Part shown: positions 2,039-3,827 of the stretch, in pieces
Layout: the number at the start of each line of letters is the position of its first letter
Numbering within the stretch: the stretch's first letter is position 1
Origin: an uncultured Bacteroidota bacterium
GTDB lineage: Bacteria > Bacteroidota > Bacteroidia > 2-12-FULL-35-15
Assembly (NCBI GenBank): GCA_903833025.1
Contig: CAILDT010000185.1
Span: 1-24,586 of the forward strand
Length of the DNA: 24,586 bases
Reading direction: 5' to 3'
Notes under the pieces: generated by a model
Told to the model about the DNA's origin: nothing
Databases searched by the model: none
The model's input: the letters and a program-made list of their open reading frames with translations, nothing else
Translations under genes and position numbers: made by a program

Positions 2039-2410
2039 TTAAATTACCGGCTTAATAGCCGCCATACTTTTCTGCTGAATCATCCCAAGTTTTATCAATT
2101 TAGGATATGTTTTTTTAATTAAAACAACCCCTTCGTCCGTCAATTTATAATACCATTCATTACTATTTTTTTCTAATTCAACCCTAACAACAAGCTTGTT
2201 TTTAATCAAACTATTTAAACATCTACCCAACGCCACATCACTAATATCTCCAATACTACAAACAATCTCCATCTTTCGCATCGGCTTTATTTTCAAGCAT
2301 AACAGCACCTTGTACGTCCAAGTTGGCTCCACAAGTTCAATAAAAACAGCAATCGAAAGTAATGCAGCATTACTTTTTATTTGTTTAACTTTTTTAACAA
2401 ATTTTTTCAT
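2039..2410 (-). CDS. HxlR/MarR-type winged-helix transcription regulator (likely start ATG 2410, 123 aa)
   Basis: WTYKVLLCL..KPMRKMEI...IGDISDVALGRCLNSLIKNKLVVR...YYKLTDEG follows the HxlR pattern W..IL..L..GP.RF.EL...I.GIS...L...L..L....LV.R......Y.LT..G. The -7 box at 2432-2439 favours the ATG at 2410 over the TTG at 2443. Confidence 0.7.
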   Translation of the reverse strand: MKKFVKKVKQIKSNAALLSIAVFIELVEPTWTYKVLLCLKIKPMRKMEIVCSIGDISDVALGRCLNSLIKNKLVVRVELEKNSNEWYYKLTDEGVVLIKKTYPKLIKLGMIQQKSMAAIKPVI

Positions 2411-2431
2411 AATTATAAAATTAAGTTTAAT

Positions 2432-2439
2432 CAAAGATA
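2432..2439 (-). promoter_or_regulatory. Bacteroidota -7 element (TATCTTTG)
   Basis: Exact TAnnTTTG on the minus strand, 21 nt upstream of the ATG at 2410. Confidence 0.65.
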
Positions 2440-2595
2440 ACAAATCAAAATTTAGGATTTAAAAGACTAACAACACTGTTAGTGAAATAATTTAGCATAA
2501 TTAAAATATCGTACTTCGCACCGTAAAATAAAAACACAACACCCGTTCATTCAATTTTACAAAAGCAAATTTTATCAAAGAAAACAGAAAAACAC

Positions 2596-2805
2596 TCTTT
2601 GATAAGTCTCAAAGATAGTGAGCTAATAAAAGAGAACTCTTTGATGAGCTCAAAAGATAGTGAGCTGATAAAAGAGAGCTCTTTGATGAGCTCAAAAGAT
2701 AGTGAGTTGATAAAAGAGAACACTTTGATGAGCTCAAAAGATAGTGCGTTGATAAAAGAGAACACTTTGATGAGCTCAAAAGATAGTGCATAGATAAAAG
2801 AAGAT
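2596..2805. repeat. Tandem array of 5 x 42-bp units with no spacers
   Basis: Units start at 2596, 2638, 2680, 2722 and 2764. Consensus is close to WCTTTGATGAGCTCAAAAGATAGTGMGYTGATAAAAGAGAAC. Confidence 0.98.
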
Positions 2806-2873
2806 TTTAGCTAAAAATTGCCATAAACAAATAGAACAAATAACAATTAATAATAAAACTAAAAACTAAAAAA

Positions 2874-3827
2874 ATGCCAGCAATTACACAATGGTTACCC
2901 GCAGAAAACTTCATCCGCAACGGAGTACGCAAAAACATAACAAGAGCATTAGCAGTTAGCTGGTGGCACTTCAATGCCCTCACAGCCGCAAGAGCAAACC
3001 CCGCCATATTAGCACTACTCATACTATACACCCCATTTCACACCAACTTAGTAAACGCATCAGCCCTAAAAACAGGCAGCAGAGGCACACAAAAAAGCGA
3101 TACAGCAGCCAAAAACCTCCTCTTCCTAATGATGACACAAGAAAAACTACCAATGTGGATGCAAATGATAGGAAACATATACCCAATAGGGTCGCTCGGC
3201 TGGATAAACCTATTCCCCAACGGAATGAAACACTTCAACACCGGCACCATCGCCAACAAACTATTAGCACTCCAAATCCTGCGAGACAAATGCGCCTTAG
3301 ACGGCACACTAATAGCCGTATCACCACTAATAACAGCCTTCTACCTCCTCATCGAAAGCGCACGCACCAACCAACAAGGCGAAAAAAGCACCGTAGCCAT
3401 CAACATCTCCGACCAACAATCAGCCATCGAAGCAATGTGCATCCAACAATTTTCCAGCTACGGCACCATCGTATCCCTAAACCCCAATTCGCCCACCATC
3501 ATCAAATCCTACATAGCAGTGTCCGAACTCCAAACAACACCCCACGGACCAATATACACAGGCAAAGTAAACGCCAAAAAAATAAAATGCTACGTCACCA
3601 AAAAAGCAACACCAACCACCAAAATCCTCGTAAACTGCGATGTAGATTGTATGGTATGGATAACCGATTCCATCAACAACCCCAACCACCCCATCGGCGG
3701 CTACGTACCAGCAGGCGTACCCACCACAGTTGCGTTTCCCGTACTCGGCAACTACAACAACCGCGTATTCCAAATCCAAAACCTAAGTTTAATCACGCAA
3801 GGCAACTACAGCATCGAATTCTTATAA
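2874..3827 (+). CDS. Uncharacterised 317-aa protein: helical N-terminal ~215 aa and beta-rich C-terminal ~95 aa
   Basis: Long ATG-started ORF behind an A-rich leader (TAAAAACTAAAAAAATG), with coherent codon periodicity (wobble positions almost all A/C). No signal peptide or recognisable catalytic motif. Confidence 0.85.
   Translation: MPAITQWLPAENFIRNGVRKNITRALAVSWWHFNALTAARANPAILALLILYTPFHTNLVNASALKTGSRGTQKSDTAAKNLLFLMMTQEKLPMWMQMIGNIYPIGSLGWINLFPNGMKHFNTGTIANKLLALQILRDKCALDGTLIAVSPLITAFYLLIESARTNQQGEKSTVAINISDQQSAIEAMCIQQFSSYGTIVSLNPNSPTIIKSYIAVSELQTTPHGPIYTGKVNAKKIKCYVTKKATPTTKILVNCDVDCMVWITDSINNPNHPIGGYVPAGVPTTVAFPVLGNYNNRVFQIQNLSLITQGNYSIEFL

Follow-up and report, generated by a model that had tools for sequence, protein, structure and literature searches.

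A conserved 42-bp tandem array upstream of an unnamed Bacteroidota gene family: a candidate gene partner for constant-size, variable-sequence repeats

Results

We identified two divergent genes separated by a tandem array in the window, the whole stretch of 24,586 nucleotides that was analysed. An HxlR-like winged-helix gene on the minus strand (2039..2410) encodes 123 amino acids from its probable ATG at 2410, although the open reading frame extends back to a TTG at 2443 (2039-2443). The protein matches Pfam PF01638 (28.2 bits versus a cut-off of 20.8; E 1.7e-6). A likely -7 box for this gene, TATCTTTG, is located 22-29 nt 5' of the ATG (2432..2439, minus strand) and matches TAnnTTTG, the consensus of Bacteroidota promoters. 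The plus-strand gene (2874..3827) encodes a 317-aa protein of a large, unnamed Bacteroidota family. The gap between the two genes is 430-463 bp, depending on the start codon.

A single array was detected in this gap by TRF (2594-2788; period 42, 4.6 copies, 94% matches). Read in register, it comprises five 42-bp units (2594..2803) that start at 2594, 2636, 2678, 2720 and 2762 and abut head to tail, free of spacers; the 3' end of the fifth unit decays near 2803, ~70 bp 5' of the ATG of the 317-aa gene (2874). Every unit contains an imperfect dyad centred on GAGCTC, with a dyad arm of 6. The array lies between two genes and is non-coding. TRF and Pfam thus bear out the preliminary description of this locus, which had an array of five 42-bp units in the gap separating an unannotated 317-aa gene from a divergent HxlR-like gene.

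Other features of the gap were also identified. A single dyad (2466..2483; 7-bp arms and a 4-bp spacer) is present between the winged-helix gene and the array, and alignment of orthologous loci places a dyad of different sequence at the matching position. It is a candidate operator of the winged-helix protein. Directly 5' of the array is a non-repeat block (2510..2570), recognised in a seven-locus alignment and also by eye, whose sequence is kept within the subfamily that has the winged-helix gene. The array is followed by an A-rich, G-poor spacer or leader on the plus strand (2804..2873). It contains a near -7 box (TAAAAATTG, 2812-2820) and the motif AACAATTAA (2842-2850), which recurs 15-45 nt 5' of the ATG in distant paralogues (ATG-aligned upstream regions). 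As originally described, an exact TAnnTTTG is absent from the stretch that separates the array from the ATG at 2874. Rfam 15 gave no match at the gathering score anywhere in the window.

A RelB-like ORF (1707-1973) and a DUF559 ORF (4178-4453) flank the locus, as had been described, but the mobile-looking context read from such neighbours did not hold: on long chromosomal contigs, orthologous loci have genes such as recF, dciA and one for an M28 peptidase as neighbours. The sequencing runs listed as containing the window sequence are of lake-water and sediment DNA, with no RNA run among them.

Searches of Pfam, PHROGs, NCBIfam and PADLOC gave no match to the 317-aa ORF. Homologues of equal length extend to ~20% identity, however, which shows it to be a real gene; the family comprises at least 1,400 clusters. 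The composition bias noted earlier as the strongest in the window belongs to this gene (GC skew -0.40, AT skew +0.35), which has the strongest strand bias of the region analysed. An AlphaFold model (pLDDT 89.8) predicts an N-terminal bundle of long helices (~residues 13-219) and a C-terminal eight-strand jelly-roll (~226-317). Foldseek searches of PDB and BFVD with the model gave TM scores by query of at most 0.23. The best VIA-align matches were PirA (jelly-roll, Z 9.5) and McpS (Z 9.3), with helical bundles at Z ~9. These matches to the modelled fold are generic, with Z values in the common range, and supply no function. A PDB sequence search with the protein returned nothing below E 0.06.

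Structure prediction supports a symmetric homodimer of the 317-aa protein. The two-fold homodimer scored 0.63, versus 0.00 for the best of 3 controls, at least 80% of contacts agreed among runs, and the partner pLDDT was at least 77. Among proteins with known structures, 20 of 30 that were solved as pairs of one chain reached this mark, as did 1 of 23 solved as single chains; these counts hold only roughly here because a custom alignment was used. The predicted interface includes N12 and G197, which are nearly invariant in the family. Family members have a median pI of 8.9 and a small net charge, and several are acidic. Conserved basic residues were not found in the family alignment, nor was any DNA-binding fold or motif found in the family. 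Profile comparison with four other array-linked proteins of unknown family revealed no relation, and an iterated HMM search of the genome for a wider superfamily was negative.

The array recurs with the gene. As the preliminary description had anticipated for homologues, an upstream tandem array, differing in sequence, is present at 34 of the 39 assessable relatives of the 317-aa gene, down to ~20% identity (23/25 loci from the same order, 8/11 from four other families of the phylum, and 3/3 from metagenomes). The background is ~3% of genes in this genome (Fisher p 1.6e-32 versus family loci). Periods at family loci are 42 bp (26 loci), 41 bp (seven) and 21 bp (one), and arrays have 3-7.5 copies. 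Each of the seven family members in this genome either is preceded by a 42-bp array or has its start within 76-118 bp of a contig break. Even in G156, an array-sparse genome (3 arrays in the 280 kb sampled), three of the five family loci have an array and the remaining two are cut at contig ends. The architecture and its conservation were observed directly; the array and the 317-aa gene are one conserved unit, which fits no named system, as was originally stated.

Conservation does not extend to the sequence of the units. Unit similarity is 74% at 89% protein identity and 64% at 81%, and at 94% protein identity it is 49%, equal to the 95th percentile of shuffled sequences. For proteins less than 35% identical, units are alike at the shuffled level only (median 43%). 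A perfect dyad arm of at least 6 occurs in 70% of family-linked units, versus 12% of shuffled units, and this enrichment, like the turnover of sequence, is a direct observation. Units within an array have diverged from each other (88-94% matches), and in one relative the array is identical across three samples. Given this combination of diverged units and cross-sample identity, we conclude that the array is maintained and is not churning. The tunable repeat length that had been suggested was not seen in those samples.

A winged-helix gene, which had been suggested to recur with the repeats, does so at few loci: the gene occurs in divergent layout at 7 of ~39 family loci, within the flanks read. 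The same position and orientation were found at L006, L007 (weak), L008, L009, L010 and L015. The winged-helix proteins at these loci are only 20-23% identical to that of the window, whereas the neighbouring proteins are 43-61% identical. Those at L006, L008, L009 and L015 pass the PF01638 cut-off, and that at L010 falls just under it (19.8 bits). A tblastn search with the window protein found no relative, whereas an HMM built from the aligned winged-helix set did. The winged-helix gene is an accessory, fast-evolving part that is present in one subfamily, and its product most likely reads the separate single dyad at 2466-2483. A second similar layout is present in this genome (G000:C893), with a winged-helix gene (4987-5358, minus strand), a 21-bp array of 7.9 copies (5552-5716) and an unknown 240-aa gene (5791-6513, plus strand). 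A canonical HxlR gene at G000:C622 has no tandem array.

Such arrays are not peculiar to this block. The genome contains ~190 of them, mostly intergenic, with periods of 21, 42, 63 or 84 bp (104, 64, 16 and 5 arrays, respectively; whole-genome TRF, at least 3 copies), and almost none at other periods above 24. Many of the ~190 lie in gaps without a promoter. Of the undescribed module that had been proposed, the conserved pairing of array and gene stands, but the array itself is one of many. Unit sequences differ from array to array. One exception is on a contig of the same genome (G000:C402:1-222), where an array is 84% identical to that of the window; when the window array was searched together with its flanks against the genome by BLAST, this was the only related array and the flanks had no further copies.

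By a strict test, 31 of 185 arrays fall within a long ORF, and by another gene set 34 of 197 do. Convergent gaps hold arrays about as frequently as divergent or tandem gaps (17, 30 and 41 arrays for 67, 105 and 293 long gaps, respectively), and in tandem gaps they are not nearer the start of the next gene. Thus, genome-wide arrays do not behave as promoter elements, and the length rule needs an explanation that is independent of promoters. Gene callers put false ORFs into such arrays, and assemblies break at them.

The co-occurrence of family and arrays was also observed directly. Arrays with periods that are multiples of 21 bp occur at ~1-6 per 100 kb in sampled genomes with the family and almost never in sampled relatives without it, the base rate outside the order being set by two genomes. 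By RpoC identity, most family-positive genomes of the order form one clade, so the co-occurrence amounts to few independent events.

In four relatives, the interval from array to ATG contains an exact TAnnTTTG (-57 to -66); most family loci have no recognisable promoter box. For a paralogue gene, contigs start 22 nt 5' of the ATG in library X7 and 10 nt 5' of it in X8, and in X7 adapter letters directly precede the contig start. At the paralogue locus L051, contigs from four runs leave the array and the following 150 bp uncovered, a gap that does not count as evidence. These libraries are metatranscriptomic by record, their RNA status being a guess, and the contig starts give a weak hint of a transcription start. 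Because most loci lack a box, placement of the array upstream of the promoter draws on the four loci and this one weak RNA hint. Mismatches in sense-strand stems comprise 59 G-T and 103 A-C, with no G-U excess. A sigma-54 promoter was rejected, as no GG-N10-GC match was seen by eye in three loci.

Discussion

We tentatively interpret the array as a DNA-level, helix-phased dyad platform located 5' of the promoter of the 317-aa gene. This non-coding DNA element would offer five dyad-bearing sites at exactly four helical turns (42 bp), a spacing that would put all sites on the same face of the helix. A symmetric (dimeric) protein may bind the platform cooperatively, or the platform may fix the shape of the upstream DNA, and expression of the downstream gene would thereby be set. 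Selection would act on unit length, copy number (about 4-7) and presence of the dyad rather than on the letters, so that orthologues would keep the architecture while the sequence turns over. The window array (42 bp plus dyad) would then be a specialised member of the constant-size, variable-sequence arrays of this lineage. Only even numbers of 10.5-bp turns would give whole base pairs.

The observations are of architecture; that the array acts at the DNA level, lies 5' of the promoter, is bound by protein or affects expression is what we infer. A multi-site platform was among the functions first proposed for this array and, with its sites on one helix face, is still the best reading, although the iteron-like and parS-type forms of that proposal did not survive comparison with those systems. 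Several points count against a platform. The genome-wide arrays do not behave as promoter elements, most family loci have no recognisable promoter box, units show no 10.5-bp phasing of A/T tracts, and ~190 distinct unit sequences cannot each have a dedicated sequence-specific reader. A strict helical ruler also accommodates the 41-bp periods of some lineages less easily.

It is conceivable, although we consider it unlikely, that the array is a by-product of lineage-specific slippage or repair that makes or expands 21-bp-multiple duplications in tolerant non-coding DNA. The regions upstream of family genes would then be merely permissive, or a hot spot, and the array would be useless to the gene. 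The presence of arrays in all types of long gap, including convergent gaps, with no bias to gene starts, would be expected of such a process, as would the turnover of unit sequences to noise between close orthologues and the near-copy of the window array elsewhere in the genome, away from a family gene. Moreover, the available text of PMC8161180 describes this class of repeat elsewhere with no known function. However, a by-product does not readily account for the retention of arrays upstream of family genes across phylum-level divergence, even in the array-sparse G156. The confined copy number (3-7.5), the dyad enrichment, and the identity of arrays across three samples in spite of diverged units also argue for maintenance.

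Alternatively, the array could be an operator for the HxlR-like protein, with five phased winged-helix dimers that repress or activate the 317-aa gene. The divergent arrangement and the dyad in each unit are consistent with this, and so are the second module of like layout at G000:C893 and the low identity of the winged-helix proteins compared with their neighbours, as expected of a protein that tracks fast-changing sites. We consider this improbable, as the winged-helix gene accompanies only seven of the family loci read and nearly all other arrays in the genome have no winged-helix gene nearby. Furthermore, each locus with the gene has a separate long single dyad beside the winged-helix promoter. 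This dyad is unlike that of the array, and its place is the usual one for an autoregulated operator.

The 317-aa protein itself might be the reader. The symmetric dimer of each paralogue would bind the dyads of its own gene's array, resulting in autoregulation or in a polymer that runs along one DNA face. The protein would co-evolve with its array, the family would be the partner of the lineage's constant-size repeats, and its spread would accompany that of 21-bp-multiple arrays through the genome. The family gene is the only constant neighbour of the array, arrays are found in family-positive genomes and almost never in family-negative relatives, and the predicted two-fold homodimer (with N12 and G197 in its interface) and the median pI would suit such a role. 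A polymerising protein of this kind is proposed in the available text of Subirana and Messeguer (PMC8161180). Nevertheless, we regard this as quite improbable, given the generic fold matches, the lack of a DNA-binding fold or motif and of conserved basic residues in the family, the small net charge and the several acidic members. Five to nine paralogues cannot read ~190 different arrays, and family-positive genomes of the order are mostly one clade, which leaves few independent co-occurrence events.

Least probable, in our view, is that the array functions as RNA, either in a 5' leader or as a small RNA transcribed on its own, with five hairpins that would affect translation or stability or act as a protein sponge. 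Each unit could form a hairpin (with arms ACCTCC...GGAGGT in close relatives), the window has no canonical promoter box between array and ATG, and constant-size repeats of 52 nt in Bacillus coagulans are reported to be transcribed (available text of PMC8161180 and PMC8625621). Evidence to the contrary includes the absence of G-U excess in sense-strand stems, which together with the canonical -7 box 3' of the array in four relatives leaves the leader or RNA option of the preliminary description unsupported. There are no Rfam matches, contigs over the paralogue gene begin only 10-22 nt 5' of its ATG (two libraries, RNA by record only; in one, directly after adapter letters), and RNA folding does not easily explain a strict length rule that dyad-free 21-bp arrays also obey.

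Other candidates were rejected. A coding repeat (42 bp being 14 codons) is ruled out by the 41-bp periods and unrelated sequences, and a CRISPR array by the lack of unique spacers between units and of any Cas family among the Pfam-scanned neighbours. We found no excess power at 10.5 bp within units, and without such phasing of A/T-tracts designed curvature is not supported.

Repeats of strict length and free sequence have been catalogued in many bacteria, and what fixes their length and what role they have is a puzzle. The locus described here offers three handles on it. The first is a conserved unit of gene and array, mutable and testable, that keeps length, copy number and dyad over deep divergence. 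The second is an unnamed protein family that occurs in the sampled array-carrying genomes and is almost always preceded by an array, and the third is the winged-helix gene that some copies carry and that evolves fast. Binding of the arrays by the family or by the winged-helix protein would open the "ruler" question to direct test. Were neither to bind, the locus would still provide a clear case in which to ask whether selection acts on helical phasing by itself. Should the 317-aa family prove to read its own arrays, it would represent a new type of DNA-binding protein that reads repeats, and its gene would be the first to be connected with this class of repeats.

Comparison with known systems

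As in HxlR/MarR-type loci, a small winged-helix gene is divergent from its presumed target and a dyad is present in the shared control region. In contrast to a typical HxlR gene, that of the window evolves much more rapidly than the adjacent gene, carries an extension at its N-terminus and is accompanied by a tandem array.

The sopC locus of the F plasmid consists of twelve repeats of 43 bp, and SopB binds an inverted repeat in each of them. The array resembles sopC and other ParB-type centromeres in being tandem, with one dyad in each unit and a repeat length close to four helical turns. Unlike them, it has no adjoining ParA or ParB gene. It also differs from sopC in that it is chromosomal, with many loci per genome that each differ in sequence, and located 5' of a structural-looking gene.

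Iterons are phased direct repeats that provide several binding sites for a protein whose own gene lies alongside. They are ~17-22 bp long, conserved in sequence, and accompanied by an AT-rich unwinding region and a Rep gene whose fold is known; none of these traits is seen here. The window array shares the phased direct repeats, but its unit sequence is not conserved and the adjacent 317-aa protein has no family match in four libraries, which sets it apart from iterons.

BrickBuilt of Porphyromonas gingivalis is one 23-nt repeat carried by a MITE-like element, so that its copies share sequence, and minisatellites of this type have promoter activity measured in reporter assays (PMC4596501). Both BrickBuilt and the arrays described here are intergenic minisatellites in Bacteroidota, near gene starts (PMC4596501). 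However, almost every array here has its own sequence and we saw no terminal inverted repeats, which does not fit a MITE.

A literature search for 21- or 42-bp repeats in Bacteroidetes found nothing. The closest match is to the constant-size, variable-sequence tandem repeats of bacteria, with units of 20-21 nt, described by Subirana and Messeguer (PMC8161180). The available text of that paper, which cites an earlier survey of 1241 genomes by the same authors, gives their function as unknown and proposes a DNA-polymerising protein or transcription. The window array belongs to this class: its length is shared with other arrays, its sequence differs from theirs, and it is non-coding. As in the available account of the class (PMC8161180), there are many non-coding arrays per genome, with strict unit length and free sequence. 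The arrays here come from uncultured freshwater Bacteroidota, in which multiples of 21 (42, 63 and 84) are common. Unlike the repeats in the available text of PMC8161180, the unit is 42 bp with a dyad and its position is kept at orthologous loci. It is also tied to one protein family, whereas that text reports no gene partner. Constant-size repeats have thus already been catalogued, without an explanation, and what is new here is a candidate gene partner.

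The array and its flanking genes

The tandem-repeat finder (TRF) reports a single array at 2594-2788 (period 42, 4.6 copies, 94% matches). In register, the five units start at 2594, 2636, 2678, 2720 and 2762, and the fifth loses the repeat sequence near 2803, about 70 bp 5' of the ATG at 2874. On one side is the HxlR-like winged-helix ORF (2039-2443, minus strand, probable ATG at 2410), which scores above the Pfam HxlR cut-off. On the other is the 317-aa gene (2874-3827, plus strand), which gave no match in Pfam, PHROGs, NCBIfam or PADLOC and has the strongest strand bias in the window. 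A search for an exact TAnnTTTG (the -7 promoter box consensus) between array and ATG found none. By these TRF, Pfam and library scans, the preliminary description was correct as to the array, the HxlR-like gene, the unannotated gene, the bias and the lack of an exact box.

The motif AACAATT(A/T)AA at 2842-2850 also occurs, 15-45 nt 5' of the ATG, in paralogues only ~25% identical (fetched loci L006, L009, L012, L015, L018-L020, L022, L026 and L034). It sits within a long A-rich, G-poor stretch, and may be a translation-enhancing leader or a piece of an unusual promoter. Nearby, a RelB-like antitoxin ORF (88 aa, 1707-1973) has no adjoining toxin gene, and a short DUF559 ORF (91 aa, 4178-4453, profile positions 4-77 of 109) lies amid palindromic repeats. 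Two further stretches, 4951-5438 and 21740-22269, are tandemly duplicated, with units of 246 and 249 bp (~2 copies, 76-79% alike). The former lies in the gene of a secreted protein that ends in a T9SS-type C-terminal tail; it repeats a coding domain and is not related to the 21-bp class of arrays.

Recurrence upstream of family genes

We identified eight database homologues of the 317-aa protein (315-318 aa, 45-86% identity). This layout recurs at two of their loci, L001 (52% identical) and L004 (57%), each with an HxlR-like gene in divergent orientation, a gap of 400-460 bp and a period-42 array (5.2 and 5.8 copies, respectively). Each unit has a dyad (inverted repeat), and the unit sequences are quite different. 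Of 68 genomes searched from the same order, 11 encode the family (G023 is used only in these counts, and no claim depends on it). It is multicopy, with up to 9 matches per genome; order-level paralogues reach down to ~20% identity, and every open frame is ~315-345 aa. An upstream array was reported by TRF at 23 of the 25 same-order loci with enough upstream DNA (period 42 at 20 loci, 41 at three), with 3.3-7.5 copies and a 3' end 38-279 bp before the ATG. Across a phylum sample of 401 genomes, only four others, from four different families, encode the protein, each in several copies; an array (period 41, 42 or, once, 21 bp) lies upstream at 8 of the 11 loci that could be assessed in them. All three loci from unrelated metagenomes have a 42-bp array, for an overall count of 34/39.

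As a background figure, an array lies no more than 350 bp from the start of ~3% of genes in the genome of the window; all seven family members there either have an upstream 42-bp array or begin 76-118 bp after a contig break. A profile search yielded 1,405 cluster representatives, nearly all of 313-320 aa, which the ESM Atlas places in Bacteroidota. Of the proposed module, upstream tandem repeats of other sequence do recur among homologues, and the winged-helix gene accompanies only a minority. Public gene calls put ORFs of 81-90 aa within 42-bp arrays at two loci (L177:1198-1470 and L180:1165-1410); these are almost certainly repeat artefacts.

Arrays also track the family between genomes. 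Samples from eight genomes of the order with the family (22-100 kb each, 623 kb in total) gave 25 arrays with periods that are multiples of 21 bp; eight family-negative genomes gave one in ~700 kb. Among distant family-positive genomes there were two in 100 kb (G234), six in 200 kb (G400), three in 280 kb (G156) and none in the 80 kb sampled of G402; two distant family-negative genomes had one array (period 22) in 140 kb. Most order positives have RpoC 92-95% identical to that of the window's genome (the rest 91% or less), and, as its nearest kin, amount to about one event. A few further events are represented by G045, G048 and the four distant genomes.

The genome-wide array class

In the whole 4.2-Mb assembly, TRF (at least 3 copies) identified 104 arrays with a 21-bp unit, 64 at 42, 16 at 63 and 5 at 84; other periods above 24 bp are almost lacking. 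About 85% lie outside long ORFs, and unit sequences differ from one array to another. The arrays are not promoter-specific: rates are similar in convergent, divergent and tandem gaps, and in tandem gaps arrays are no nearer to the start of the next gene. The true number is higher, because arrays break short-read assemblies: 75 of 197 reach the end of a contig, and for three family genes the contig ends 76-118 bp from the gene start. At a contig edge (C402:1-222) is a 42-bp array ~84% identical to that of the window and in the same register, adjoining the 3' end of an unrelated gene and not of a family member; small families of arrays can therefore exist.

Genes downstream of arrays encode secreted and housekeeping proteins and a large number of 200-320-aa proteins without a known family. 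Those lacking a signal peptide and a Pfam family (L157-L176) are on contigs C929, C543, C510, C37, C35, C755, C20, C752, C496, C308, C675 and C118. The C20 and C752 proteins have a weak C-terminal CarboxypepD_reg-like beta-sandwich (~residues 227-309), with the domain order of the 317-aa family; profile comparisons of four array-linked proteins with that family found no sequence relation.

Possible role of the array

We tentatively favor, at somewhat less than even chances, a reading in which gene and array form a conserved unit and the array, upstream of the promoter, acts at the DNA level as a helix-phased platform of dyads; it would be a specialised constant-size repeat of this lineage. Family-linked arrays have a 41/42-bp unit, not 21 bp, and 70% have a perfect inverted-repeat arm of at least 6, vs 12% of shuffled units (genome-wide, 37% of 42-bp and 13% of 21-bp arrays). 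Unit sequence decays to noise far faster than the protein: unit identity is 49% (the shuffled 95th percentile) at 94% protein identity, 74% at 89% and 64% at 81%. The periods allowed genome-wide are exactly even multiples of 10.5 bp, which we take to be what exact helical phase-locking would predict. No 10.5-bp A/T phasing was found inside units; bending, if relevant, comes from in-phase repetition rather than designed A-tracts.

Action on DNA is favored by several observations. Stem mismatches on the sense strand (59 G-T vs 103 A-C) show no wobble excess. In four relatives an exact -7 box is present at -57 to -66, a good distance 3' of the array. As a weak hint, two wastewater libraries recorded as metatranscriptomic, whose RNA status is a guess, each yield a paralogue-gene contig that starts shortly before the ATG, by 22 nt in X7 (with adapter letters immediately preceding) and by 10 nt in X8. 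In two metatranscriptomic-recorded libraries, a deep contig at L051:721-941 begins at 721, where adapter letters immediately precede it, and spans REP-like hairpins (CCGTAGG cores), then repeat-like letters unlike the reference. In this strain the gene is ~99% identical and the upstream DNA ~90%, then not alignable.

We consider it rather unlikely that the array is only a side effect of length-biased expansion. The presence of the class in all kinds of gaps and the turnover of unit sequence accord with such an origin; the dyads and recurrence upstream of family genes count against it. Nor is the array in constant flux, as five diverged units are identical to the letter in three samples of one relative.

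An operator array for the winged-helix protein, which the divergent layout suggests, is improbable. HxlR-like genes occupy the same place and orientation at L006, L007 (weak), L008, L009, L010 and the distant paralogue L015. Their products share only 20-23% identity with the HxlR-like protein of the window, against 43-61% for the adjacent family proteins. These loci have in common a conserved non-repeat block immediately 5' of the array, and each also carries, beside the winged-helix promoter, one long dyad whose sequence is particular to the locus; in our view this dyad, rather than the array, is the likelier operator. A second module of this layout in the genome of the window (C893:4987-6513, in part L163) encodes an HxlR-like protein of 123 aa (minus strand), followed by an array (21-bp unit, 7.9 copies, 5552-5716) and a 240-aa gene (5791-6513, plus strand) of no known family, unrelated to the 317-aa family.

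Recognition of the array by the family protein itself is quite improbable, although a median pI of 8.9 and a predicted dimer could suit DNA binding.

The AlphaFold model of the 317-aa protein (pLDDT 89.8) has a long-helix bundle (13-219; two of the helices span 60 and 53 residues), then an eight-strand jelly-roll (226-317), and its structural matches are generic. Inspection by eye showed no signal peptide, and the family conserves no residues of catalytic type. Homodimer prediction scored 0.63 (best of three controls, 0.00). Of proteins solved as pairs of one chain, 20 of 30 reached the mark, as did 1 of 23 solved as single chains; these counts hold only roughly because our own alignment was used. 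At least 80% of contacts agree between runs, with partner pLDDT of at least 77, and the predicted interface (7-13 and 190-220) takes in N12 and G197, both nearly invariant. These models support a two-fold homodimer as a prediction.

An RNA leader or small RNA, compatible with the lack of an exact -7 box between array and ATG, is very unlikely given the stem mismatches and the downstream boxes of relatives.

Comparison with known repeats

The repeat class itself is already catalogued. Constant-size repeats are described as without known function, with a protein that polymerises along DNA or small-RNA transcription as proposals (PMC8161180). What this locus adds is a form with a 42-bp unit and a dyad, the conservation of that form at orthologous loci, and its link with a protein family that has no name.
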